From: Eledone cirrhosa
Lineage: Eukaryota
Length of the DNA: 64,000 bases
Assembly: GCA_964016885.1 (NCBI GenBank)
Contig: OZ024741.1
Span: 37,696,001-37,760,000, forward strand
Direction of reading: 5' to 3'
Shown piece after piece: positions 5,581-58,020 of the stretch. How positions within the stretch are numbered: position 1 is the stretch's first letter; the number at the start of each line of letters is the position of its first letter. A program made the translations under genes and the position numbers. Below the pieces are notes generated by a model that worked only from the letters and a program-made list of their open reading frames with translations, did no database searches and had not been told where the DNA came from.

Positions 5581-6502
5581 GGTTATGTGTGTGCTTCGTA
5601 ATTTAACAGTATGATAAAAAACTCAAAATAAATACCATACTTGAAAAAATAAGTACTGATGTCCATATGATTGACTAAACCTTTCATGGTACTCAGCGTG
5701 ACTGCAGTCTAATGACTGAAGCCAGTAAAAGAATAGAAAAATATAACAATACATCATTATATATATATATATAAAATATAATATACACCATTTTTTTAAT
5801 TATATTTCATTAATGACGTCTAGCAATTTCAAGTTTTTATATACTTAATGCTGGATTCTTCATATAAATATGTCAGGGGCAGGTATTTTGATGCTATAGT
5901 CTATAATGTATTGTTCTCTGTGACTAACCATGAAGAGTAATTCATTTTTGAATAATTATTCCATTTAACCACTCTGTGTTTGTTATTTAAAAAAAGAATT
6001 TGGTTTTTTTCCTCCATTTGTAATTTTATTTGTTTTTGTTTTTTTCATCTCCAAATCTCCATATCCTCCCATTAAAGTGAAGAATTAGCAGAGGCTTTAG
6101 AATTCTTCATGGCATTCATTCTGGCTCTCTGCTTTCTAAGTTTAAATCCTGATGAGGTCATATTTGTTTTTCGTCCTTTCAGAGTTGAGAAATAAAGTAC
6201 CAGTCTAGTGCTGGGGTCAATTCTTCCTCAATATCTTTTTTTTACTTTCTCTCTTTTGCTATCTCCCTCTGTAGTTCAACTCAACTGTACTGTGGCCAAT
6301 CAATTTTTTCTTCTATATATTTTTCTCACTTTCTCTCTCTCACTCTCTCCCAGTTCTTTCTTGTGAAGAAATCAGGTGTGTTCTTACCTGGAAAGGGATG
6401 GGCTCAACCAAGTTTAAATGCCCAAATATGTCATGATGCCACTATATGGCTACATTAGGAATTAAAGTTCCATAGATGGATCAATGACAGTCCCTTTTTT
6501 TC

Positions 6503-9538: not shown

Positions 9539-12514
9539 CAAGAAAGAAGAGTGACATGGTTCGCTATACAATAAGGGCTTTATTCACATTGCTGACAATT
9601 ATTTCTTTGATCTGGTAGGTCTAGAGTTCGCTATCCGCCTAAGTGAACTGTCTATAACAATAGCCTGTTATCCCATATATATATATATATTTATTCACAC
9701 ACGCACATGCATAAAAATATATATATGTGTGTGTGAATGTATGTATATATATATATGTGTGTGTGTGTGTGAATGTGTATATATATATATGTACATATAT
9801 ATGTACACATACACACACATATAAATATATACATACACACACACACATATAAATATATGTATATACACACATACATATATATGTATTCCCTTCCCATCAC
9901 TGACAATAATATCCTTTATTGATGTTGATTTGTCTTATATATTTATCTATCTATTAAATTATTTATCTGTCTATCTATTTGTATATTTTTATTTTATGTG
10001 TGCCTAATAGTGTGGAATAATTGAGTGTATTGTGGAGGTTTATCCAGCTATTGTTATCACCAATATACATAGTCATACAGATAGTTGTAGGCCTGGCCAA
10101 TAGATGGAGATGGGAAATATAGAGAAGACTGCATTGAAACTCTCACTCTCTCTCTCTTTTGTCTATCTCCCTCTATATATATCTTTTGTATATCTCTCTC
10201 TCTCTCTCTCTTGTATACACATCACGCACTCTCAAGCATTTATATACTTGTATACATACACACACACTCAAACATTCATATACTTGTATACATATACACA
10301 CTCTCAAATATTCATATACTTGCATACATATACACACTCTCAAATATTCACATGCATGCACACACACATACACACAGACACCTATACACACTCAAAAATT
10401 CATATAGATGTAGGAGCACACAAACATGCACGCATCAGACATGCACCCATGCTCATACACACACACACACCCTCAAATATTCATCCACAAATTCACGACA
10501 ACGAATGTCCTCAAATACACATACACACACATGTAATCTTTCATATTCAGCCACAAATATACGGCTGTCAACACACACAGCCCACACACATTAAATACAT
10601 TACTATGGACACCAACGCATACAAGCAGGTGTACATATAAACACCTCCACACACATTGACAGATTTACTCAGAAATATGCTACTGTGAACATAAACATTA
10701 ATCCACAAATGCACTACTATGAGCCCACATCCACACACACATGCAGATACATTCACTCATAAATATATTACTATGAACACATATACACATGTCCATGATA
10801 CGTCCCTACACACACAAACATACATATGTACTTTTTATACTCTACATCATTCAAATATATTGCCTATATCACACACACATATGTCTGTCATTATAAATAT
10901 TTAATGAAAGTGTTAATGAGAAAGTTAGTTATATTACTAAATCCCTTCAAATTCTTGATTATTTTCAAAACTATTTGAAAAGCATGGGCAATGTCTTTCA
11001 TTAGAACTAAGGCAATGAAAGGGTTAATAATTGTTTCTACTTTTGGCACAAGGCCAGCAATTACCCAGTGCATTACTGGTACTTTATTTTATTGACCTCG
11101 GTGGGATTTGAACTCAGAATGGCAAGGGCCGTAACTCTATGCGTCAAGACATGGCGTCCGACCCCCTACCGATACTGCCATAATGAGAAAGTTTGTATTA
11201 CTAAATCCTTCCAAATTGTTGATTATTTTCAAAATTATATGAAAATTAAGGCAGTGTCTTTATTAGAAATATAGTAATATAAACGTTAATAAGTTAGTTT
11301 ATCTTACTAAACTTTCGCAAGTTTTTGAATATTTTCAAAATTATTTCAAAGCCATAGGCAGTATTTTTCCATAGAAATATAATGGTGAAAGAGTTAAGGA
11401 ACCACTAGATACTGTATGGTAGTAATCTGAAAGGACATAGATTGGGTACATCATTTTTCTTGTGTACAGTATCATTTGATAATGTTGCTATTGTTTTCTG
11501 TTCATTGTTTCCCAGTCACAAAAGGGGCCATTAATTTATTGGTCCTACAACACATCTATAATAGGTTTTTAGGTTACATCATCATCATTTAACATCCACT
11601 TTTCCACACTGGCATGGGTTACAAGAAGTTTCTATTTTCAGTGTTTTTCTTGTTTCTTACATTCTGAGTTTTAATCACACTGAACTCAAATCTGCTTTTC
11701 CTCTTTCCAGTATTAATAAAATAAAATACCAGTACTAGGGGTTGATGTAAATGGTTTATTCCTTCTCCAAATTGCTACCCTTGTGCCTAGATTAGAAACC
11801 ATTACCATCATATCACCATTTTTATGTTTTCTATACTAGAATAAGTCCTCACCTCTACAGAACCCCCTGTTAACTTTTTGCAAGGTTCAGTTACCTAAGA
11901 TCAACCATCATATCCTTTTTTAATTATTTCTTATATATATTTTTTATTCCTTTACATTTTTTTTTACTCAAAAGTGGGAGGGGTGGCAGTGCCTGTGCTG
12001 CTTTTCATGGCCTATGAAACTAGTGGGAGGGAGTGAGGTATACCCTCTTATCTATAGTACACAACTGTTAAATGAAATAATGATAAAGCTAAAATTATGA
12101 CACAACAAGCTCTATATATTTCTAGGACAATGATTAAAGCTATACAAAAACTAGTGTTTATATTCTTAGCTCCAACTGTAGATCTACTTTCTAGTCACCA
12201 TTCTCTCTCACCTTCCCAGCTAGAGGAAGAATGTCATTGGACATATCTAAACAAACATTACACTACAGAGCTGTTGTTCTCATTACAAGTGTCTTTTTAT
12301 TGATATGCTGTATATTGAGTATCTAAAGACATAATACACCCTGCACTCCCCCCTCCACACACATATATATGCCTCACTACCACCAATGTCAGGAAATATG
12401 ATCAATGATGAAGGTGATCAATCCTTCATCAATTTTGATGATGAACATTCAGTCAGTCAGTAAACTGAACAACCAACTTATGAATTGTGTTAGATATTGA
12501 ACATTCCACAGACA

Positions 12515-15985: not shown

Positions 15986-16132
15986 ATGATGGACAACATA
16001 TTCGGGTAGGAGTAGGGTGGCAGTCTTCAGATGAAAGGGTTAATAATGCTGACACACACTCACACACAACAGCCAAAAATAACATTTAATATTTCACTGT
16101 ATATTGTAAAAAGCTGTGCTTTTGAATAAAGC

Positions 16133-17215
16133 AACTAGTTGTGAACTCTTTAATCACACAGCCATACCTGTAAATAAGTTGTGAAGTGTATTCCTTAACC
16201 ACACAACCATACCTGTAAATAAGTTGTGAAGTGTACTCCTTAACCATACAGCCATACCTGTAAATAAGCTGTGAAGTGAACTCCTTAACCACACAGCCAT
16301 ACCTGTAAATAAGTTGTGAAGTGAACTCCTTAACCACACAGCCATACCTGTAAATAAGTTGTGAAGTGAACTCCTTAACCACACAGCCATACTTGTAAAT
16401 AAGTTGTGAAGTGTACTCCTTAACCACGCAGCCATACCTGTAAATAAGTTGTGAAGTGAACTCCTTAACCATACAGCCATACCTGTAAATAAGCTGTGAA
16501 GTGAACTCCTTAACCACACAGCCATACCTGTAAATAAGTTGTGAAGTGAACTCCTTAACCACACAGCCATACCTGTAAATAAGTTGTGAAGTGAACTCCT
16601 TAATCATACAGCCATACCTGTAAATAAGTTGTGAAGTGAACTCCTTAACCACGCAGCCATACCTGTAAATAAGTTGTGAAGTGTACTCCTTAACCACACA
16701 GCCATACCTGTAAATAAGTTGTGAAGTGAACTCCTTAATCATACAGCCATACCTGTAAATAAGTTGTGAAGTGAACTCCTTAACCACACAGCCATACCTG
16801 TAAATAAGCTGTGAAGTGAACTCCTTAACCACACAGCCATACCTGTAAATAAGCTGTGAAGTGAACTCCTTAACCACACAACCATACCTGTAAATAAGTT
16901 GTGAAGTGAACTCCTTAACCATACAGCCATACCTGTAAATAAGTTGTGAAGTGTACTCCTTAACCACGCAGCCATACCTGTAAATAAGCTGTGAAGTGAA
17001 CTCCTTAACCACACAGCCATACCTGTAAATAAGCTGTGAAGTGAACTCCTTAACCACACAGCCATACTTGTAAATAAGCTGTGAAGTGAACTCCTTAACC
17101 ATACAGCCATACCTGTACATAAATTGTGAAGTGAACTCCTTAACCATACAGCCATACCTGTACATAAATTGTGAAGTGAACTCCTTAACCATACAGCCAT
17201 GCCTGTAAATAAGTT
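16133..17215. repeat. 45-bp minisatellite, about 24 copies
   Basis: Unit ACCACACAGCCATACCTGTAAATAAGTTGTGAAGTGAACTCCTTA; accounts for the 368-aa repetitive ORF. Confidence 0.97.
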
Positions 17216-18756
17216 ATGGAAAATTTCATCTGAGCACTTATTTTTTTTCCATATTGTTAGAAGTTACTAAATTCTTTGACTCTAGGAATGTTTCTTTTTG
17301 TTGAAGAACATCACATCTAGTATACTCTACCACTGCATCTGCTGCTTTTTCAGCCACTATCTTTCACCTTTTTTGTTGATAAACTGCTTGAAATTACCCC
17401 TGATTCTATGATATAAAACTGTTTAAAAATATTTATATTTATTACTCTATATATGCTATTTTATTTTCATGGTAAAGGCTTTATCTCACATAATTATCTT
17501 ACATAATATTGAATCTATGAGATTTTGATATTATTTATTTTGAGAACAATACCTTAATGCCAGCATGAGTGGCTGGTAGCAGCCAGTTTGAACAGAAAGA
17601 GGTGAGGGAATTCTGGCCAGATACAGCCAGTTTAACTCTTCAAATTCTTGATTATTTTCTAAATGACTTAAAAATCATTCATAGGCAGTGTGTTTCAGAG
17701 TTAATGTAAATTACTGTATATACTCAAATATAAACTAACCCCACTATTTTATGTCTGAAATGGGAGAAAATACAAACCTTATTTACATTGAATTTGAAGT
17801 TGGTGAAAATCATCAAAATATTGATCCCGGATATAAGCCAACTCCATTCTACCATTGAGTTTTTTTTAATCATATATTCCTTGGCTTATATTTGAATATA
17901 CTTGGTATATTGTTGGGCTATTAAATATTTTCCATATTGCCATTGCCCACAGCTCAGATATATTAGTTATATATTTTGATGTTTCTTGGTATTGCATGAG
18001 ATATTTCAGCAACCTAATTATATTGAAATTTCTCGCAGGTTGTGGATGCCTATCATTACAACACTTGAATTGAAAAAGTAAAAATATAGTTGACTTCATT
18101 AGTCTACTCCTATCCTTGAATTTCTGAGAACTTAAGAGTAAGAATAGAGACAATAAATACACACACACACACACATGTATATCATATATATATATATATA
18201 TAATAATTTAATATACAAACTTGAGAACTGTCATTCGATGCTTCATAATAGGCGACAAGTTTCTTCACTCAATGATGCTATTTATATTCAGTGACTCTAC
18301 AAATCAAATATATGAAATTTATCTTTTCAAAAATGAAAGAAAATGCTTCAATTAGTTTTCGTTACATACCAGAAAAAATCTTGAGTTATCTTGAGCATGT
18401 TCTTATTAAGAAAATGATATCTTTAAAATGTGTTTAGTACAGAAACGAATTCTGCTGTAATGATATTTAAAATGGAAAACTGTTATCCTCTGAAGTCTTA
18501 AACAATAATAAAGATCTCACCTTGTATCAATACCCATGTTGAATGTGGATTTAGAATTAGGAATGAAAAATGTGTATATTAACCATTTTGAGACCAACCA
18601 ACTCAAAACCACTTTTGGTTCTATGAAATAATGTTACCTATTATAAAGAAATCTTCAAACATAGTTTGATATAAGAATATTTTCATGTGGTGCAAATACC
18701 ATCTTAATAATGAAATAGTTAATAAATTTGATAAATCCCTTCAAATTCTTCATTAA

Positions 18757-39176: not shown

Positions 39177-41830
39177 TTCAGCAATCTGAGGTCTGTTCTC
39201 ACCACCTCTGCCCATGTTTTTCGTGGCCTACCTCTACCACGTCTTCCTTCAACTGGCATTTCCTGGCACTTCTTCACCCATCGGTCATCCTCCATGTGCA
39301 TCACATGTCCATACCACCGCAGTCTCCTCTCTCGCACACTACATTCTATCAACATATCCATGCCGGGTCGTTCACGCACATTGAAATTGCACATCCAACG
39401 GAGCATGCTTGCCTCATTTCTCTCTAGCCGTCGCATATCCTCTGCAGTTGTTGCCCATGTCTCACTACCATGCAGCATCGCGCTCCTCACACAGGCATCA
39501 TATAACCGGCCTTTCATACGCAGGGAGAAACCCTTCTTCGTCAGCAGAGGAAGCAGCTCCCTAAACTTCTTCCAGCCCATCCTTATTCTAGATACTATGG
39601 CCTCGGAACACCCCCCTCCCATGCTAATCTGATCTCCTAGGTACCGGAATCTATCCACAACTTCTATAGCACCCGCCTGCATTTGAAAAATGTGTCTATC
39701 AATGCGACTTCTACTGTCTAATTTCCCTGTACATCTACTGCATACGTATTTCTCCCTACCTGTTAGTTTGCCTGCTATCCCTCTACATCTCTCGTGTACC
39801 CAGGATCTGCATTGTGTGCATTTTATAGAATTTATGCCAGTTCCTTTTCTGCATATCGAACATGGCCATTTCCCTGATGGAATTAGAGTTTTGTCCTCTT
39901 TTCTACTCATCAACACTTTTTTCTTAGCTAGGTTCACTCTCAGTCCTCTTGCTTCCAACTGCTGTTTCCATAGCCAGAATTTATTCTCTAGCTCCTCTAA
40001 TGATTCTTCTATAAGAACCAGATCGTCAGCATAGAGAAGTTCCTAAGGACAGCCAGTCTTAAACTCCTCTGTTATGGCTTGGAGGACTATAATGAACAAG
40101 AGCAGGCTGAGGACTGAACCTTGATGTACTCCTACTTGTATCTGGAATTCCTCATTAAACTCCATTCCCACCCTCACTTTACTGACAGCACCTCTGTACA
40201 AAGTTTGCACTGTCCTCACAATCCATTCCTCAACACCTAGTTTCCTTAGGGACCACTAGGTGACAGATCGGGGTACCCTATCAAAGGCCTTCTCTAGGTT
40301 AACAAAGGCTAAGTATAGTGGCTTATTCTTCTCTGAGAACCTCTCTTGTAATTGTCTCACCAAGAAGAGGGCATCTGTTGTACTTTTCCCAGGCACAAAA
40401 CCAAACTGCATCTCATCTAGTTTCACCCTTTCTCTAATTAGTTGTCCTAAAATCCTTTCTGCCACTTTCATAACCTGATCCATCAGCTTTATGCCCCTAT
40501 AATTGCTCCTCTCCAGAGCATCCCCTTTACCTTTGTAGCAATTTATGAGAATACTGCTGCACCAGTCTTTGGGTATGACACCACCATATATAGCCTGATT
40601 GATGATGTGTGCAACCAGTTTAGTGCCTATGTCCCCTGATGCCTTCAGCATCTCAGCAACTATCCCCGACAGTCCAGCAGCCTTACCATTTTTCATTTCC
40701 TTAATCGCCTCTTGGACCCTATATTCGTCAATATCAATAGCTGGTCCCTCTGTCGGATCTACTGAAGGTAATTTCTCTCTCTCCCATTCTTTCTGCACAT
40801 TCATCAGTCTTTCATAATGACATTTCCAGGCCTCCTTTTTCTGATCATTCGTGACACTAAGTACACCGGCATCATTCCGGACACATTTATCTCCAGCAAC
40901 ATCCTGATTTGCATTGACACACTGCCTTGCAATGTGGAACACTGCACGTCTCTGATCTTCCCGTCGCAGAACATTGGCAAATCTCCTACTCTCAGCCTCC
41001 CTGCCTGCTAAGTACACCTGACGTCTAGCTTCTTTCTTAGTGGCTGTATATCCTTCTCTACTCCCACCCTTTTTCCAAGCCTTCCATGCTAGTCTTTTGT
41101 CTCTAATGGCCTTATCTACTGTGCTGTTCCACCACCAGGTCACTCTCTGTCTGGTTGGAGCTCTGCTCCAGCCACAAGTTTCATCAGTAGCCTGCAGTAA
41201 GTTATCACGTAAGAAATTCCAGTTATTATCTATGTCATACGTCTCTAAATCGTCTTCTTTTTCGTCATACACATCTTGAAGGGCTTTCCTAAATTTGTAT
41301 TTTAGTGAAAGGTCTTTTAGCTTCCACACCTTCCTGTATGTCTCATTCCATCTCTTGCTTACTGAGATATCACTAACGACTAACCTGTGCTGAGGGGTAC
41401 ATTCTTCCCCAGGGTATGCCTTGGTATTTGACACCATCTGTCTGTCCCGCTGCCTAACTAGTAAGAAGTCAATCTGCCTTATGTGCTCGCCTGATTTGTA
41501 GGTTATTAGGTGGTTGGCAGGTTTCTGGAAGTTAGTGTTGCAAATAGTCAGTGTACTTGCATCACAAAATTCAAGAAGTCTCCTTAATTTCTTGAACCAT
41601 AACCATGCTCACCATGTACCCCAGTGTAACCATCCTGGAGCTGTCCAACATGACCATTGAAGTCCCCTACTAGCATAACGATGTCTCCATCCTCTGTCAT
41701 TGCGGTTGTTTGTAAAAGTTGCTCTTAAAAGCAGTCTTTCTCTTCTTTGCCTAGGCCTGCTTGGGGAGCATAGGCAGAGATGATTGTCAGTAGTCTCCTG
41801 CCTACAACTAATCTAATCTTAATTATTCGA
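39177..41830 (-). mobile_element. RTE-clade LINE, disrupted copy: AP endonuclease, linker, RT, Cys/His finger and C-terminus; 3' tail missing
   Basis: Translates IISAYAPQ, GDFNGHVG, PQHRLVV, NYRGIKL, QFGFVPGKSTTDA, KAFDRV, QGSVLS, YADD and GRPRKTW, with several nonsense changes. The 5' end abuts a (TA)n tract. Confidence 0.95.
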
Positions 41831-42088: not shown

Positions 42089-42375
42089 TATATATACGTT
42101 ATTCCGGGTTGAATCGGAGGTAACCACAGTAAGTAAGGTACTCAATACATAGCAGAGTATAACAGTTATAATATAGATGAGATTCTACAGGACTAGGACT
42201 GTTTCATTCATTAGAAATCATCAGATATATATATATGAACCATCTAAACACTCTCATTTTAGTCTGTTGGATTATGATTAGCTATATATATATATATATA
42301 TATAGCTCTGTTAATATAGAGACAAAAGAGCTTAGTTAGGTTTGAGATCAAATAACATATGCTAGACTCCATTGG

Positions 42376-42410
<35 letters not shown>

Positions 42411-44110
42411 CATACATATATGCATGTGTATACATGTATATACACTTATGTAAAGACACATTCAAGACCCACTATTATTTGATTAAACCAGTAGTGGGGA
42501 TAATATGAAGCTTAATTGTTATTCTGTTAAATCTTCTTCATATAGCTTTCTCAGAAAGAGAGAGAGAGAGGGAGTAGGGTTGGGGGGACAAACAATGAAT
42601 TGTAGAGGATGATGGGAGCAGAGCCAATGATGTTTCAAAGTGAAGGAGGCCAGTTAATCTGAATAAGAATTGTCTCAGACCATAACAGTTTATCCAAGCC
42701 ATGTCAGCATGGAAAATGATGTGTTACCTTGTGGTAAAAAAAATCACCATCCAGCATTTTAAGGTCATTTTCCCTGCAAAATCATGGCTTGGTCTTGTGG
42801 GCCAATAGACCTAATCATACACACCATGGGTTCCTTCTTGAAGCAGTATTTTATGATTAGCTACAGCCGCCTTGTATGACATGCAGCAATAAAATGCTCC
42901 TATTTCAAACCAAGCACATATTCAGATTTTGATTCATTTAATGTCATTTAAAATTAGAGTGGAAGGTTTGTCCATAGGTATGTGTTCCATGATTTTTGGA
43001 AAATTAGGTATGGGTTCCACTGCCAAAAAATGTTTTGAGGACCACTACCATTGAGGAATTGACAATGTACCAGTCAGCAGAGTTACAAAGATCTTGTAGC
43101 AAACAAGCACATGTGGATGTAGAACTATTTTAGTTGCATCTTATAATATGTAGGGTATGGTGTATCTATTCTAAACTGGAGGAATACACACAGCCTCTTT
43201 GAGGTAAAAAAGACTGCCAGAAATACAGTTTTCTAATTTAGGCACAAGGCCAGCATTTTGGGGAGATGAAGAGATAGGTTGATTATATTGACTCCAGAGT
43301 TTGTCTGGTACTTCATTTTATCAGCCTTAGAAGAATGAAAGGCAATGTTGACCTTGGGTAGATTTGAACTCAACATGTAAAAAAAGAACAGAACAAATAC
43401 CACAAAGTATTTTGCCAGCTGCACTAACAATTCTGCCAGTCCAGCACAAAAAAAATGATAGAAACACAATTTTCTTGAGACATCCAGCTTCTCGTTTGTT
43501 GTGTTCTGTATTTTTATCTTTTATCTGGATGTGATGTTAAACATGTCTATGCCTGTTTCATGACAGACACTGCAATTAATCAACTGGGGTGGTGGTATGT
43601 GAAATGTTCTGTGAAAGGTAATCCACCACATCTCTTCTGTTATTTCTATGTAGAAGAGCCTGTAAGTTATCCTTTACTGATAAATCTGGCAGGACTTATA
43701 GAAGGCAGATAGTGTTCAACTGTATAGAATTGTGATGTAATCTTTCATAAAGGCTAGTACAAAAACATACTTACACTCTCATATCTTCATATGCACACAT
43801 CAAAATGGTGCTTGCGTGCTATCAATTCATGTCTGTGTGTGTAAATACATGTCTGTGTCTGTGTGTATGTAGATGATAATGATGGTGATATATATATGTA
43901 TGTGTGTGTGTATGTATGTTTGTATATATATAGAGAGAGAGGGGGTTATATAGAAAAGACTTCTACAGGATCAGAACTATTTCATATTTTCATATGGATA
44001 AAACAGTTCTAGTCCTGTAGAAGCCTTTTCTATATAAACCTCTGTCATCACTCTACATACATATTGAGTACCTTATTTAATGTGGTTACCCCTGACTCAA
44101 CTCAGGAGCA

Positions 44111-44141
<31 letters not shown>

Positions 44142-44271
44142 AGATAATAAGTTATCATTTAAGGTAATCCAGTTAGATGTGAGTACTCTGTACTGTGGAT
44201 AGTTTTAATGTACGGTGTTGTTTGACTCGCGAGTTTACAAGAATACTTATGCAGGTTATTCTTGGAGTAAT

Positions 44272-44600
44272 AATAGTGAAAGAGTGAAGAATAACATGGT
44301 TGGCTGTACAAAAAGGGTTTTATTTACAGTATTAACAATTGTTTCATTGATCAAATAAGTCTAAAGGCCGCTAATCATTAGAAATTATGTCACCCGACCT
44401 TAAATACGGTGGGTGTCTCTGATCAAATCATCGGAATACTGATGATTTGATCAGAGACACCCACCGTATTTAAGGTCGGGTGACATAATTTCTAATGATT
44501 AGCGGCCTTTAGACTTATTTGATCAATGAAACAATTGTTAATACTGTAAATAAAACCCTTTTTGTACAGCCAACCATGTTATTCTACACTTTTTCACTAT
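44272..44600. repeat. Near-perfect ~160-bp-arm palindrome containing hammerhead-like motifs (Penelope-like pLTR remnant)
   Basis: Arms are reverse complements around an 8-nt spacer GGAATACT. The minus strand reads CAGTATT-CCGATGA-TTTGATCA...TGATCAAT-GAAAC-AATT-GTT-AATACTG-TAAATAAA. Confidence 0.85.
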
Positions 44601-47808: not shown

Positions 47809-49155
47809 GTAAGTCAATGTCACAATTTTCTTTATCTAGCTATGATGTAATCATCATCATCATTTATGTCTGCTTTTAGCTTTTCATGCTCTCATGGGCT
47901 GAGATGAGATATTTTAAGGCAGATTTTCTACAATCAAGTGTCTTTCCTGATACTAATTCCTACCTTATTTTTTATGTATGTTATACACGCTGCTAATGTT
48001 CATTGAACAATTATGCAAATTCCTTAAAGGAGGGAAGAGTGGGTAGGTGAAGATATAAACAGTGTCACATCTGGGATTTATAAATGGTATCGATATGAAG
48101 TTTTGTTACAAGTGGGACAGCACACACACACACAGCCATGTGTATCTGGTTTAGAATAGGTACATCATATCCTTGCAAGTCATAAGGAAAGGATAAAAGT
48201 GTTGGTGTAAGGAATGGAATCCGATTGTATAATATTACTTCAAAATGTCCCTTCCACCTGATGCCAGCATGGAAAAGATGTTAATGAGATATATAAAAGT
48301 GAGATATATAAAAGTGAGATATATAAAAGTGAGATATATAAAAGTTTTTAAATTTTACTTCCTTTGAGCTTTTACAGTACAATGAAATTGAGTTGTTTTT
48401 ATTTAGATTCATTTTACATGTATACACATATATATACATTATATATATATATATCACACTGTCAATGTGGTTGGCATTTGGAAGGGCATCCAGCCATAGA
48501 AAACCAGCCAGAAACACCCTATATGAGCGAGACACAGTTACCCAACCCAACTTGCCTCTACATGAGACCCGTCTAACCCATGCTAGTGTGGAAGATGGAT
48601 GTTAATCAATGATGATGATGATATATGTATAGTAATAATAATTACGAAGACCAAAATATATATTTATGACACGCATACAAAAACTTGTATGTACACACAC
48701 AAAAAAAAAACTACATAAAAGAAATTCAGATGTGCACTTCCATCAACGATGCACAAACCATGCACACTCATGAAATGCACTCCATTGGTACACACACACA
48801 TAACAACACCCATGACACACCTGAATTCTCCACCTCGATCCCCTCTCATGAAGGCCAAACTACTCGCATATCACCCCGAGCCTTAAAAGAATATTTTTTT
48901 TCTAATCACTGATATTCCAATCTCTTTTTCTCTCCATTTTCTGAAGAAGGATTTATGTCCGATACATCAAACCCTTTTCTACTTTCTCCTAAGCATGAGT
49001 CTAATAAGACTTTGTGTTTGTCTTGTCATTTCTTGAACTATATATATGTATATGTTTATATATTTATATATTTATGTATGTTTATATATTTATTTATATA
49101 TATATATATTTATATCTATATATCTATAAGTATTTATATATATATATATATATAT

Positions 49156-49395
49156 ATAGTGAAAGAGTGAAGAATAACATGGTCAACAGTACAAAAAGGG
49201 TTTTATTTACAGTATTAACATTTGTTTCATTGATTAAGTTGTCTAAAAATTGCTAATCGCTTGAAGTTGGGTCACTCAATTTTAAATACAATGTATGCCT
49301 AATCAAATCATCGGAAAAACTCAGTTTTTCTGATGATTTGATTAGGCATACATTGTATTTAAAATTGAGTGACACAACTTCAAGTGATTAGCAAT
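49156..49395. repeat. Second copy of the hammerhead-bearing palindromic element, embedded in (TA)n
   Basis: Outer arm nearly identical to that of the 44272 copy; ~75-bp inverted arms centred near 49322. Confidence 0.8.
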
Positions 49396-49944
49396 ATATA
49401 TGTATATATATATATATATAAGTATTTATCCCACCCTTGCAAGCAGGGAAAAGCGGACGTAAAATGATGATGATGATATAATGTGTGTGTGTTTATATAT
49501 ATATTTATAGTTAACCAAGGTCATAGGAAGAATATTCACTATATTCTTGGTTACTATATATGTATATATGTATGTGTGTGTGTAATTTTGACTACTTGTT
49601 CTTTGATTAGCTTCTTTCAAGATCTATGTTCAGTATGTAAGTTGGTCTTACCAAATTCTTTGTTTTTATTCTGTATCAAGAACAACATAGTTTGTCATAA
49701 GGAACAGTTTAAATAGACAGGGTTATTTGAGTTCACTTGTAACCTTATAAATAGGACCTTTTATATAATAAATACCTTCAGAATTATAATGTAGATTTCT
49801 GATTGTATGTCAGGCTCTTCTCTTAATTTATCTCTATCCTCCCTCCCCTCTCTCTCTCTCTCTCTCCATCACCAGCTCTATCATCTCTCACATTCTCTCT
49901 ACTATGTCTCTCCCCCCCTCTCTCTCTCTAGCATCTTCCACATT

Positions 49945-50448
49945 CTCTATACCAAGTAGCTCACTCTATTTTTCTCTACCAAGTAGCTCTCCTCTCTCTT
50001 CTCTACCAAGTAGCTCTCCTCTCTCTTCTCTACCAAGTAGCTCTCCTCTCTCTTCCCTACCAAGTAGCTCTCCTCTATCTTCTCTACCAAGTAGCTCTCC
50101 TCTATCTTCTCTACCATGTAGCTCTCCTCTCTCTTCTCTACCAAATTTCTCTCCTCTACCTTCTCTACCAAGTAGCTCTCCTCTCTCTTCCCTACCAAGT
50201 AGCCCTCCTCTATTCTCTACCATGTAGCTCTCCTCTCTCTTCTCTACTAAGTAGCTCTCCTCTACCTTCTCTACCAAGTAGCTCTCCTCTATTTTCTCTT
50301 TCTCTACCAAGTAGCTCTCCTCTACCATCTAACTCTCCTCTCTCTTCTCTACCAAGTAGCTCTCTTCTATCTCCTCTACCAAGTAGCTCTCTTCTATCTC
50401 CTCTACCAAGTAGCTCTCCTCTCTCTCCTCTACCAAGTAGCTCTCCTC
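49945..50448. repeat. ~27-bp pyrimidine-rich minisatellite
   Basis: Unit CTACCAAGTAGCTCTCCTCTCTCTTCT, roughly 18-19 copies. Confidence 0.93.
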
Positions 50449-51965: not shown

Positions 51966-54321
51966 GTGAGAAATATAATTTTTCTGATTTACCTGTGTTT
52001 AATAATCTGTGAATGTAACTTAATAACCCTTTTGGTACCAATCCATCTGATACTGGCTCTGATTCTATTAACTCTTTTGATACCAACCTTCCTGAAACTG
52101 TCCTTTGTTCTGTGATACAGAAGTATTTGTTTTAAAGTGTATATATTTTTATTAAAAAATCTTCTGACATAATTTTATGTCAGAACCTTTGTTAAGCTAT
52201 GTTCCAAACATCAGTTGAATAATGAAAAAGTTATTTTACTTAATCTCCTCAGAATTCTTGATTATCTCTAAAATTGATTATCTCTAAAATTATTAGAAAA
52301 TGATAGGCAGTGTCTTTTATTAGAAATATGGTAATAAAATTATTAATCCCTATTGTGATCATATTTCTAATGACATACACTGTTTCTCAGTTGATAAATA
52401 TTTTAGAGATATTTACTGAAATTATGTTGAAAGGTATTAATTTAAATAAGAACCCTTTGAAATGGGTGATTTTATTTCATAGAACCTGAGGCAGTTTGCT
52501 GTTGGTTGGTATTATAAGGGTTGAAGAAAAACACCAATTTTAAAGAGTTTCTATTTAAATTAAAACCTTCCAATATAATTTTACCTAAGAACATTTTATT
52601 AAGTTATATTACAAATATCATCTTAATAAGGAAATAATTAATAATTTTTGTAAAATCCCTCTAAATTCTTTGTTACGTATTTGAAATTCAGTGATTTCAT
52701 GAGAGCTATACTCATGAATGAGTTAAAATCTTAGAAAAATGGTAAGAATAATGCTAATGTGTTTTATATATTTTACTTGAGTGTCAGCTAGATTTCTAGA
52801 AATCATCAGCATCTATTGCAATGTTCTACACTTAAATCTGTTGATACCAAACTGTCTAGAAGTAGCTTTGATTCCCTAATGCCAAGTTTTTTTTTTTAAA
52901 TGTTTATATTCATAAAAAAAATTTTCCATCGTAATTTTATGTAATAATCATTAAGTTATGCTCTGAACACCAGGTTAATGATAGGAAAGTTAATTATATT
53001 ACTAAATGTCTCCAAATTGTTGATTACCTTTTAAAATATCTGAAAATCATTGGCAGTGTGAAATCATTAGAAATATGACAATGAAAGGATTAAATTGTTT
53101 ACATTTATCTGAAAAAATTTTCATAATTTTACTTGAAAACTTTTATTATGTTTCAAACACCATCTTAATAATGAGAAAGCTATTTTACTAAATCTCTTTG
53201 AATAGTTGATTATTTAAAAAAGAATTTTGAAAACGATAGATAGTGTTTTTCATTAGAAATATGGTAACGATAGACCTGTTGTTGTTTTTTGAGTTGGCAT
53301 GAGGTAGATTTATAAATTAGGTTATGTTTGTTATTTCTTATTTTATATTTTCTTTTTAATTGACAGTAGCTTATGATATTCTTCTGATAAAACTACGCAG
53401 CCTGTTGATACCACCTGCCTAAATCTTTACCTTACTACTATCAAATGTTTAATAGTAGCATAATACACTGGCACAAAGTCAAATGACTAATCATAACCTC
53501 CCAATCTTACAGTATATTAGCGTGAATTATGCTTTATAAGAATGGTAAAGGCATGTATTATAATTATGTGTGTGTAAGTAGTAAATGAGGAAATGTTGTA
53601 AAGCTCTCTTCATCAATAAATTTCCTTGTCTGAACATCATGATAGCAAATGCTTCAATGATGAATGTTCTAGTTGTTCAGTCAGCAGATGGCTTCCTCCT
53701 TAACTCTATTGATACTAAACTATTTGAAACTCATGTTCTGCAATACAAAACTATTTGCTTGTTTCAAATTCTTAATTATTTTCTAAATTATTTGAAAATC
53801 ATAGGCAGAGCGTTTCATTAGAAATATAGTTACTAAAAGTTAAATTAAAGTGTAAGTGGCTGAGTATTCCACAGTCACATGCAATCTTAACATAATTCTC
53901 AGTCCATTTGACAGGCTTCCAAGCAGTTTTAGTTACACAATTTCAATCACAATCTAGTTGTAAATCTGAGACTCTGGTAAAAGACACATGCCGAAGTTGC
54001 TGCATATCATCATCATCATCATCATCATCATCGTTTAACATCCATTTTCCACGCTAACATGATTTATCCATACTAGTAATGGATTAGTAATGGAATTGAA
54101 CCTAGGGTCTCATGATTACAAAGCAAACTTCATAACCACTTGGACATGCAAATGTAGAAATAGTAAAAGTAATTTCTTCAGAACTGAAATAAAACTCCAG
54201 AATCTATTTATTGCTATTCCATATCACCACATTGATCTACTATCAGTTATATATTGTTTTCTTTTCTATAGTTCTCTCTGTATTCAATTACCACCAGTAA
54301 TTCACTGAATCAACTACACTC

Positions 54322-54360
<39 letters not shown>

Positions 54361-54364
<4 letters not shown>

Positions 54365-55620
54365 CCTTTGATAGGGTACCCCGATCTGTCATCTGGTGGT
54401 CCCTAAGGAAGCTAGGTGTTGAGGAATGGCTTGTGAGGACAGTGCAAACTTTGTACAGAGGTACTCTCAGTAAAGTCAGGGTAGGAATGGAGTTTAGTGA
54501 GGAATTTCAGATACAAGTAGGAGTACATCAGGGTTCGGTCCTCAGCCCGCTCTTGTTCATTATAGTCCTCCAAGCCATAACAGAGGAGTTTAAGACTGGC
54601 TGTCCATGGGAACTTCTCTATGCTGATGATCTGGCTCTTATAGCAGAATCAGTAGAGGAGCTAGAGAATAAATTCCGGCTATGGAAACAGCAGTTGGAAG
54701 CAAGAGGACTGAGAGTAAATCTAGCTAAGACAAAAGTGTTGATGAGTAGAAAAGAGGACAAAACCCTGATTCCGTCAGGGAAATGGCCATGTTCGATATG
54801 CAGAAAAGGAACTGGCATAAATTCTATAAAATGCACACAATGCAGGTCCTGGGTACACAAGAGATGTAGCGGGATAGCAGGCAAACTAACAGGTAGGGAG
54901 AAATATGTATGCAGTAGATGTACAGGGAAATTAGACAGTAGAAGTCGCACTGATAGACACATTTTTCAAATGCGAGAGGGCGCTATAGAAGTGGTGGATA
55001 GCTTCCGGTACCTAGGAGATCAGATTAGCATGGGAGGGGTGTGTTCCGAGGCCATAGTATCTAGAATAAGGACGGGTTGGAAGAAGTTTAGGGAGCTGCT
55101 TCCTCTGTTGACGAAGAAGGGTTTCTCCCTGCGTACGAAAGGCCGGTTGTATGATGCCTGTGTGAGGAGCGCGATGCTGCATGGTAGTGAGACATGGGCA
55201 GCAACCGCAGAGGATATGCGACGGCTGGAGAGAAATGAGGCAAGCATGCTCCGTTGGATGTGCAGTGTAAATGTGCGTGAATGACCCAGCATAAATGTGT
55301 TGAGAGAGAAACTGTGTCTGAGAGGGATAGAATGTAGTGTACGGGAGAGGAGACTGAGGTGGTATGGACATGTGATGCGCATGGAGGAGGACCGATGGGT
55401 GAAGAAGTGCCAGGAAATGCCAGTTGAAGGAAGACGTGGTAGAGGTAGACCACGAAAAACATGGGCGGAGGTGGTGAGAACAGACCTCAGATCATTGAAG
55501 CTCACGGTGGAGATGACGAGGGACCGTGACGAGTGGAGAGATGCTGTGCTGAATAAGACCCGTCCCACCCTTGCAAGCAGGGAAAAGCGGACGTAAAATG
55601 ATGATGATGATGATGATGAT
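54361..55620 (+). mobile_element. RTE-clade LINE, 5'-truncated young copy with intact 3' end and (GAT)n tail
   Basis: ORFs 54325-55284 and 55297-55596 share one frame, split by a single CGA>TGA stop. Contains LYADDL and ends GGGAAAAGCGGACGTAAAATGATGATG. Flanked by (TA)n on both sides. Confidence 0.96.
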
Positions 55621-55896
55621 ATAAATATATATATATATGTAATAGGGATTACTGCACTAAATCTTTTATGTTCATTACATCTGATGACGTTACCAATTTT
55701 CTTTCATCTTGGTCTGGTAATGTAAACCAGCCATAGAAATACATATTATGTAATTGTCCAATATTAAAGGGATATATAATCCGGCCTTCTATTTTCAATG
55801 AAATATATATATACTTCATTGACATATATATAATATATAATTTTTCTTTTTTTAAATTAGTTTCCATTTTTTATAATTGTCTTTCTTTTTCTGCAG

Positions 55897-58020
55897 TTAA
55901 CTGGCTGTGATGAAATTGAGGAAACTTTAATCCAGAGGGCATACTATATGGGTCAAATTCCCGCCCAGCTAGCAGCAGAGAGTCTGACCTCTTCTACCTC
56001 CTTGACACAGCCTGCTTTTTACAATGTGATCAATCCTAGGTCTGCATCAGCAGCTGCATTTGCAAACAATGTGCATACACAGACTGACACTATGAATGGA
56101 GACACCAAGCCAACCACTAGTCATAATGCAATGCATACTAGCTCACAAAGAAGACCAAAATCATCCGATGGTGTACCAGAGAGTTCTACGAGTGGTCACC
56201 ATCCTTCAGAGAATTTGAACATGAAAACCGTTTCTATAGAAAACCTTCACAAGAACACTTCATCTTTCCCTTCAAAGAGTGAAAGCTCAAAACCAAGTCT
56301 TCAAGATGTAATCTCTCATTTGTTCAACCAAGCTTCTGCTGCATATCCATCGGCACAGACTGTTCTACCGAGATCGGCGGCAAGCTCCGATAAATCTTCC
56401 AGTAGTAGTGATAAAACTGAAAGTGCTTTAACATCTTCAAGCAAAAAGAATGAGTTGGCATCTGCCCTTTCTACATCCATTAGTAACCAATCACATTTGA
56501 TCTCCCATAAAATGGTTTCTATTCCTACATCTGATATAAGTTTATCAAATTCATCTTCCAGTGGTCCAGAAAATATTCTGGCTTCTCAAAGCAATACAAA
56601 TTCTTCATTACGGTCTACAGTATCATCAAAATCTTCTGGAGTTAACGAACACTCCCGTTTGTCTTCTAATAAAGGAGCTACCCCAGCTCCTGCTAAGTCG
56701 TCACAAGACTTATTAACTGCTGGTCGCAGCAGTTCTGCTGGATCATCAAAGTCTTCATATCCAATTGGTTATGATAAGTTTGGTGCTGTTTACTATGACT
56801 ATAGTTTGCCAGACCGTGGGCTGAGTCAAGCCAGACAAAGTCGAGGTGTGGTGCTCTCTCCATGTGTTAGCCCTGCTGCAGTGTGCTATTATCCAAATGG
56901 TTTACATCCACTGAAGCCCCCGGTGGACCTTTCTAACTCTAGTTTGGATGTCTCTAATCCAAGTACCCCACTAGATTTATCGGCATCAGCTTATAAAGAG
57001 CAAGAACCAATGCAGTCGCGGAAGCCAGGAAAAGGAGCTGAGAAAGCAGTAGATATTTGCAGTCCATTAGCACTAGGTGAGTCTTTGGAAGAAGTTAAAA
57101 TCCCTTTGACAAAGAGCTGTACTGTAACAGTCCCTACTCCTCCAGCTTCCACTTTAGCCGAGAAGCAAGAGAACAGTCATTCAAAGGCTGTTGTACCCTC
57201 CCTTAAATCTTCATATGAGCGAAACTATCTTATTTTTGGGGACAGTGAACTTGAGATAATATCTGTTGGTAAAAACAAGTGGATTGTTCGTAATGAACTT
57301 GAGCTCTGTAGAATTGCAAAAGAGGAAGTGAAGAAACTCGGTAGTCCAATTCCTGAGGAACCTTGTTCTAAATCACCTAATGATAAAAGACATTTATGTA
57401 AACACTCAGCCAAATCCATTTGTTCCAATGTTGACTCTTGCTCGCACTGTAACCATTCATCGAATGCAAATCCATGTTCCACTCCTAAGAATTCCCAAGG
57501 TGCCTGTTGCTTATCTGCAGATTTCTCCAGGTTCAGTTCATCCTCATCCCCTCAGCACTCCTCAGCTGGCAGTCCAAAAGACCAAAAGGACAGTTGTCCT
57601 AACCACAAGAGAAGTGTTGATTCCTCTAAGGAAACAGACTGTCCATCAGCCAAAGTGTCCAAGAGTTCTGCTAATTACCCTTTAATTGATAATAATAATA
57701 CTAGTCCATGTCCTAATGAGTCCACTGCTGACATATCAACAACCGCCAATAACTCTGACTGGGAAGTCAGTCATGATGACTCTTCTCCTAACAACCCAAC
57801 TTCAAACTCAGAAAACAACACACCCACTTCTAATGAACAACAGCAACAACAGCAGCCGCCTCCTACTCCTACTCCTCCATCAACGAACTCTAAAGTGTCT
57901 GAGGAAGAATCTCAGAAAGAACCTCTTTCTTCACCTGACGAAGCTGGAGATTCAACAACACCTCCTGACACTGAAGGAAGCAAATGTCCAACTTTACAAA
58001 AAATGTTAAAGACTACTTGA
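55897..58020 (+). CDS. Paxbeta: Pax-beta terminal coding exon (Ser-rich, with YYDYSLPDRGL, PVDLS, PLDLS and YERNYLIFGDSELEIISVGKNKWIVRNE motifs)
   Basis: TTTTTCTGCAG| acceptor at 55896, phase 0, in frame with the 690-aa ORF 55948-58020 ending in TGA. The motifs match my recollection of the C-terminal motifs described for Pax-beta proteins. Confidence 0.9.
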   Translation, partial: LTGCDEIEETLIQRAYYMGQIPAQLAAESLTSSTSLTQPAFYNVINPRSASAAAFANNVHTQTDTMNGDTKPTTSHNAMHTSSQRRPKSSDGVPESSTSGHHPSENLNMKTVSIENLHKNTSSFPSKSESSKPSLQDVISHLFNQASAAYPSAQTVLPRSAASSDKSSSSSDKTESALTSSSKKNELASALSTSISNQSHLISHKMVSIPTSDISLSNSSSSGPENILASQSNTNSSLRSTVSSKSSGVNEHSRLSSNKGATPAPAKSSQDLLTAGRSSSAGSSKSSYPIGYDKFGAVYYDYSLPDRGLSQARQSRGVVLSPCVSPAAVCYYPNGLHPLKPPVDLSNSSLDVSNPSTPLDLSASAYKEQEPMQSRKPGKGAEKAVDICSPLALGESLEEVKIPLTKSCTVTVPTPPASTLAEKQENSHSKAVVPSLKSSYERNYLIFGDSELEIISVGKNKWIVRNELELCRIAKEEVKKLGSPIPEEPCSKSPNDKRHLCKHSAKSICSNVDSCSHCNHSSNANPCSTPKNSQGACCLSADFSRFSSSSSPQHSSAGSPKDQKDSCPNHKRSVDSSKETDCPSAKVSKSSANYPLIDNNNTSPCPNESTADISTTANNSDWEVSHDDSSPNNPTSNSENNTPTSNEQQQQQQPPPTPTPPSTNSKVSEEESQKEPLSSPDEAGDSTTPPDTEGSKCPTLQKMLKTT

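Follow-up and report, generated by a model that had tools for sequence, protein, structure and literature searches.

The closest described relatives of the elements reported here are Penelope-like elements (PLEs) of the Hydra clade (Craig et al. 2021, PMC8557442), which, in the available parts of that paper, share with them a DKT motif, a CxCx5C linker, CxxC/CxH motifs, a C-terminal GIY-YIG domain, a (TA)n target and a hammerhead near the 3′ end. The insertion layout has likewise been published: the accessible text of PMC3846280 and of PMC8557442 (Fig. 2 legend) describes inverted, 5′-truncated pLTRs with a tail on one side and notes TATA and Inr-like motifs in the pLTR, and we observe the same head-to-head, short-overlap layout here. 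PMC3846280 ascribes the palindromes to self-priming on an antisense template, and PMC8557442 poses the formation of PLE inverted repeats and the purpose of the hammerhead as questions; the available parts of the two papers give no breakpoint statistics or cap signature, unlike the analysis below. In another clade, the Penelope enzyme of the green anole element Poseidon has been studied in vitro (Frangieh et al. 2024, PMC11167929). It cuts and extends both strands of an AT-rich target, as in the proposal made here, uses two internal RT start sites that bound the tail and match the tail pattern here, and does not depend on hammerhead cleavage for insertion. The term "head-to-head" is absent from the available text of PMC11167929 and "inverted" occurs once in an unrelated sense, so that this text makes no link to inverted arms.

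We analyzed a 64,000-nt stretch of the Eledone cirrhosa genome (the window) containing two palindromic loci, A and B. Both are head-to-head stubs of a ribozyme-bearing pLTR from a Hydra-clade PLE, one from each of two subfamilies, and the elements form a new family within an established element type. At locus B, the left arm (49157-49321) and right arm (49323-49395) differ at 3 of 72 nt and flank a single central C (49322). The left arm, on the minus strand, is an untailed pLTR of subfamily B (95% to the family reference) that extends from +1 at 49321 to the untailed 3′ end. Also on the minus strand, it contains the helix I 5′ strand (AGUUUUU, 49315-49321), which begins with the predicted transcription start (+1); the core CCGAUGA (49308-49314), a U4C variant of CUGANGA; the stem II 5′ strand (49298-49307) and 3′ strand (49229-49238); and a segment with GAAAC, a short helix III, the predicted GUU cleavage site and the helix I 3′ strand (49210-49228). 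Cleavage is predicted between 49217 and 49216. The helix III loop is AAAU, the family state being the palindromic AAUU. The right arm, on the plus strand, covers +1 to +73 with the core CUGAUGA and ends ahead of the stem II 3′ strand and GAAA; its 3′ part is absent and its ribozyme incomplete, and the sole whole hammerhead at locus B is the left arm. The central C, given on the plus strand, is ambiguous: it may copy the cap G of the left arm, or it may be the -1 base templated in the right arm.

At locus A, the arms match over 44273-44432 and 44441-44600 with 2 mismatches in 160 nt. The left arm (44273-44440, minus strand, +1 at 44440) is a subfamily A pLTR with a whole hammerhead, and a tail found on this arm only (44143-44272, minus strand) extends past the untailed end and carries a 25-nt and a 3-nt deletion. 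The right arm (44441-44600, plus strand) is untailed, begins inside the core at a short-overlap joint and lacks the helix I 5′ strand. At both loci the complete hammerhead is thus in the left arm only, on the minus strand, and neither right arm is whole. The first-pass annotation described arms that are alike within each locus and diverged between the loci, and the sequences bear this out (the two left arms are 81% alike); however, the special likeness within a locus does not hold up and reflects mostly subfamily membership. It also read CCGATGA on the left and CTGATGA on the right as kept at both loci. The letters are correct, but the conserved pattern is a coincidence: CCG is the family state (119/146 copies), and the CTG of the locus A right arm arises at the junction, where the left arm ...AATACT abuts GATGA. 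The source elements of subfamily B include CTG variants (11 CTG vs 1 CCA in 36 copies not found via the core), so the T in the locus B right arm reflects either CpG decay or a second template. The CCG/CTG state is concordant in six long head-to-head pairs (hand count from one list).

Each left arm reads on the minus strand as a helix I strand, CCGAUGA, a long stem II, GAAAC-AAUU-GUU and a second helix I strand, the order of a type I hammerhead; the CUGANGA and GAAA core (with U4C), an NUH site and three helices are all present. Rfam hammerhead models gave no score at the loci among the 150 matches listed out of 165, and there were 0 matches at the Rfam gathering score in four loci. The hammerhead assignment is accordingly based on sequence motifs and base pairing. 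Earlier-described hammerheads share the short palindromic helix III, the extra base after position 9 and the covarying families, and likewise occur solo or paired on opposite strands, 100-700 bp apart. Unlike them, the present ribozymes have U.U for G-C at 10.1-11.1, a U4C core and a branched stem II insert of ~60 nt; the long insert and the U4C core also differ from the Hydra clade as given in the available parts of PMC8557442. The U4C variant has been described and reduces activity in vitro (accessible text of PMC3088659), and a short helix III implies a dimer requirement (PMC4209133). The hammerhead is probably idle in these stubs.

The stem II strands at both loci carry the letters first assigned to them, and one of the two compensatory swaps claimed between A and B stands. 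Among 146 copies, 76 have U-A and 59 have C-G at pair 7, with a clean subfamily split, and this swap is a case of general subfamily covariation. Pair 10, which adjoins a 2-nt indel, is G-C in 78, an A.C mismatch in 50 and A-U in 13 of the 146 copies; the claimed A-U/G-C swap is valid for the small A1 lineage only, the main subfamily containing the 50 A.C mismatches. Pair 9 is G-C in 93, A-U in 25 and G.U in 19. In 42 chosen copies, 90.7% of cells were paired (slid controls 25-44%) and 40 double changes were seen (0/500 shuffles), a statistic that is inflated by the relatedness of copies and involves few independent swaps. Compared with shuffled sequences, the locus B left arm folds no better (z +1.35), and locus A gives z -2.2. 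Since stem II covaries between the subfamilies, as at pair 7, the fold was likely under selection in the source elements, as had been supposed.

Reading frames near the pLTR agree with the Hydra clade. In one copy (L227), a B-type pLTR lies ~570 nt beyond the stop codon of a frame that is 502 codons long and contains RT, linker and GIY-YIG motifs, and a single frame with RT and then a C-terminal GIY-YIG was seen upstream of the pLTR in L227, L226 and L242; no intact full-length copy was found among those examined, all of which stop short of the N-terminus. Frames of the RT plus GIY-YIG type number 58,070 candidates. By eye, the frames show a CxCx5C linker and CxxC and CxH flanking a conserved E and N, with CCHH absent; DKG is modified to DKT, a Hydra trait (KADKT in L242), and the RT motifs agree with alignment rows in the available part of the PMC8557442 supplement. 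Pfam and PDB searches of the PLE reading frames returned no match, and in the Atlas neighbours of the frames some of the members have RVT_1, HTH_animal and GIY-YIG. The tail is ~160 nt here, whereas it is 30-40 nt in the Hydra clade (available parts of PMC8557442). Three other assignments were rejected. The Neptune clade, our first reading, was dropped as the linker is CxCx5C and not CX2-5CxxC and the Neptune CCHH motif is absent; Hydra-1_Obim has a different listed hammerhead, and 19-nt, 12-nt and 9-aa motifs of the present families are absent from the one supplement file available; and the non-LTR retrozyme is defined by tandem head-to-tail hammerheads (accessible text of 10.64898/2026.07.22.740005), whereas copies here are dispersed and head to head.

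Of the two dispersed subfamilies, A comprises 2139 candidates and 499 exact core seeds, and B comprises 2686 and 287. There is also a third family, M, which is compact and has 14,607 exact seeds; we found no autonomous partner for it in this analysis. The sample consisted of the seed matches that came first when listed by genome position: 70 A, 75 B and 33 M copies, of which 68 A, 70 B and 33 M were left after removal of near-duplicates; the near-duplicates (L094, L095, L210, L212-L215) were removed for the 5′-end hazard, TATA and rare-variant counts and retained for arm distances, permutation and tail classes and the arm tree. TA runs are present at both ends of 64 of 77 complete insertions, and direct repeats beyond the TA runs occur in 2, compared with 1.5 expected by chance. 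Locus B has the 10-nt AAGTATTTAT outside the TA runs on either side (49128-49137 and 49420-49429), possibly a target duplication; a repeat of this kind is not general among 77 other insertions.

The suggestion that the breakpoint adjoins the ribozyme core is supported. Two cores lie head to head within 30 nt at 5613 places by pattern search, compared with 3 in the control; all 15 of the junctions that were retrieved belong to family M. Mapping the symmetry centres against the core, as had been advised, we found that ends cluster at the first helix I base. Among at-risk copies, 5′ ends fall at -3 to +4 of this base in 29/58 A, 24/62 B and 12/26 M copies and in the next 27 nt in 6/29, 2/38 and 1/14, a per-nucleotide excess of 11-fold (A), 34-fold (B) and 31-fold (M) in counts that take in both arms of palindromes and are not fully independent. 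No pile-up of 5′ ends, including those of partner arms, was seen at the predicted cleavage site ~110 nt away. Of 171 copies that bear the core, 72 continue past -31, indicating that transcription of many templates began at a more upstream point. A few long palindromes (L084/L085, L206 and L257) have 0.4-1.1 kb between cores and both arms reaching well upstream of the promoter, so their templates began further 5′.

The sequence around the breakpoint resembles a Pol II start. TATA is at -32 in 17/23 run-on A copies and at -30 in 10/13 M copies, and the strict TATA pattern is at -31/-32 in 9/36 run-on B copies, with a degenerate form in the same place. The +1 context in A, B and M is (C/T)CAG, which we take to be initiator-like. 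In family M, the base before +1 beside ATATA is G in 28, the templated C in 18 and A in 5 copies (n=51; all 28 G and 13 of the 18 C cases were retrieved for inspection), whereas an internal C|AG site in M used as a control has G in 0 and C in 19/19. A G also precedes +1 in 4/5 copies of a sister subfamily of M, and a control at +4 shows 5/5 templated bases. Seven of the 28 G cases adjoin a partner arm ending in G, leaving 21 (P = 9e-5 vs control), and 9 of the remaining cases are on untailed arms, a 2-nt partner being excluded (P = 0.018 vs control). A GT-flank test gave no match. Cap-type bases occur in 1/23 stopped A copies, 17 of which keep the templated -1 base, and in 6/21 B copies. This makes the signal weak for B and absent for A. 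In one family M palindrome (L301, G000:C11:38130390-38130740), both arms end at +1, each with a cap-type base, and a 5-nt TA insert lies between them. According to the accessible text of PMC4859970, an untemplated G is a known mark in L1 of a copied cap and a full-length template, and this cap-derived 5′ G resembles the extra G of family M. The breakpoint is likely to be a capped Pol II start and not the cleavage site. We infer that a capped start is the best reading of the 5′-end evidence, its main rival being a splice acceptor or microhomology hot spot.

In that rival account, two cDNAs are still made, but the hot spot is a splice acceptor (pyrimidines plus CAG) or a helix I microhomology or stall site. 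A pyrimidine tract does precede CAG in all three families, CAG microhomology is present at many A junctions, and the cap-type base is rare in A; moreover, a D. virilis intron ends at helix I (PMC4209133). However, many ends retain AG or CAG, which splicing would remove, and no recurring upstream exon was seen by eye at the junctions. The canonical TATA spacing in A and M, the G excess in M and the lack of a partner 5′-end pile-up at the cleavage site also argue against this account, which we consider unlikely.

The idea that the palindrome is regenerated at each insertion is supported by the tails. One tailed and one untailed arm were found in 101 of 104 classifiable pairs (23 further A/B loci being incomplete), and in 18 A/B pairs the tailed partner consists of tail only, sequence that the main arm lacks. 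Two cDNAs are needed in these pairs because a fold-back copy cannot hold sequence that its template lacks. In 42/82 A/B pairs it is the untailed arm that extends further 5′, by >10 nt, and in 23 it is the tailed arm; the junction overlap is 1-7 nt in 44/81 short-gap pairs. These observations weigh heavily on self-priming, in which the inverted arm is made by a single cDNA, or by the antisense transcript put forward in the accessible text of PMC3846280, folding back and copying itself. Perfect centres exist (e.g. L024, L117), and helix I complementarity offers the cDNA end a partner (L153). Against this, besides the tail-only partners and the longer untailed arms, the untailed end is fixed at one site, and some arms differ at 8-9 subfamily-type sites (L006, L015); the latter pairs probably had two templates. 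Self-priming is thus quite unlikely as the general route, and it may still explain small extra hairpins at some junctions.

We therefore favor formation from two cDNAs. A putative Pol II promoter in the pLTR would direct synthesis of a capped RNA beginning with the first base of helix I. The enzyme would nick both target strands, and RT would start at two internal sites, the pLTR end and the tail end, as the anole enzyme does in vitro. Synthesis of at least one of the cDNAs would continue to the capped 5′ end of the RNA, and the two products would be joined head to head via short microhomology, the template usually being the same RNA or subfamily and sometimes a different one. A similar process is L1 twin priming, in which two primings lead to an inversion (accessible text of PMC4859970), as proposed here. 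The two cDNA copies here overlap and so yield a palindrome. In L1 inversions, by contrast, non-overlapping parts of the RNA are used. Taken jointly, we find it fairly probable that these are 5′-truncated head-to-head pLTR insertions whose arms decay independently, with each mirror made from two cDNAs. The fuller scheme, in which the pLTR of PLEs would act as a TATA/Inr promoter with helix I at +1 of a capped RNA and an internal RT start just downstream would give solo pLTR palindromes in large numbers by double priming, we regard as evenly balanced between right and wrong.

Homogenization of the arms after insertion by gene conversion or hairpin repair, leading to concerted evolution, had been offered as the alternative to regeneration, and it fares worse. 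Arm-to-arm distance has a mean of 7.6% over 29 A pairs and 5.7% over 36 B pairs, more than the distance to the nearest other copy (4.0% and 3.4%), and the partner arm is the strict nearest copy in only 3/29 A and 2/36 B pairs. Contrary to the clustering by locus that was expected, partner arms are sisters in only 4 of 23 pairs in a tree of 196 arms, from which de-duplication removed the locus A pair and for which the locus B right arm was too short. Among rare variants (<4% frequency, chosen since most changes recur with ~160 copies) in 60 palindromes, 342 are on a single arm and 25 on both, i.e. 93% single-arm. The single-arm rate of 2.5% per arm is close to the 2.7% of the unpaired tail, and A/B pairs show no divergence gradient from the centre and no effect of the spacer on total divergence.

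Some observations do favor homogenization. Partner arms resemble each other more than randomly drawn family copies do (mean distance 7.6 vs 9.2% in A and 5.7 vs 8.3% in B; 0/2000 permutations). This would be expected if a single source RNA or subfamily supplied the two arms, a reading with which the concordant CCG/CTG state of the six long pairs agrees. Tight palindromes hold a slightly larger share of rare variants common to both arms (shared to arm-only 20:214 vs 5:128, P = 0.088), and 4/65 pairs, locus A included, have unusually few differences (P < 0.01 each). The locus A hairpin haplotype is found on its own two arms only; however, its tail has 0 rare substitutions in 126 sites, which looks young rather than converted, and the 3 changes shared by its arms all strengthen one inner hairpin. 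This outlier fits a young insertion from a rare source. The arms of locus B, at 3/69, are average: their closest other copies differ from them by 2 and 1, and the arm-to-arm distance does not stand out from the family mean (P = 0.45). Concerted evolution as a general rule is largely refuted and homogenization is a very unlikely explanation of the palindromes, which we continue to attribute to two cDNAs; weak conversion may act in tight palindromes.

That the palindromes are assembly artefacts is scarcely credible: no short-read contig spans the locus A centre with 31 letters on either side, but arms differ by tail, truncations and substitutions, thousands of junctions have varied centres, and contigs with the private haplotype of locus A extend to 44438 at ~2x the depth of a nearby contig (22.7 vs 12.5; 24.9 vs 11.6), from runs that may be of the source sample.

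The insertion layout itself is ordinary, and the concerted evolution of arms that drew attention to these loci does not hold as a general rule. The main gain is a quantitative argument for two cDNAs per palindrome and for a capped RNA start at helix I. We did not find this argument in print: a search of the openly searchable literature turned up neither a cap signature nor a helix I start site. Thousands of junctions in this genome predict a capped start at helix I and two cDNAs joined head to head. If this is true, double priming would replace the self-priming model for PLE inverted repeats, and the hammerhead would work at the transcript 5′ end, in decapping or dimer-dependent trimming, and not only in cutting tandem precursors.

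Other features of the window were also observed. On the plus strand, the exon-sized segment 51831-51905 matches the final part of the Paired box domain (PF00292, E 1e-4); together with frames at 960-1661 and 55861-58020, it suggests that the stubs sit in a Pax gene intron. A young tailed family M copy (42097-42224, minus strand, 98% to the family reference, 5′ end at ~+7) is flanked by TA runs, and a decayed family M palindrome (43948-44101) adjoins the locus A tail, such stubs being grouped in shared TA runs. An old A/B-related stub at 9540-9670 has an untailed arm (9540-9633, minus strand) and an apparent tail-end fragment. Elsewhere in the genome, five related B palindromes (L211-L215, G000:C2 at ~311.2-312.3 Mb) have stuttered helix I repeats at the centre and probably spread by local duplication. 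The window also contains inverted LINE fragments with RVT_1 domains (39177-41608 and 54301-55499) that are 94% alike over 952 nt, and tandem minisatellites at 16086-17263 and 49960-50410 with units of ~45 nt and ~23 nt.
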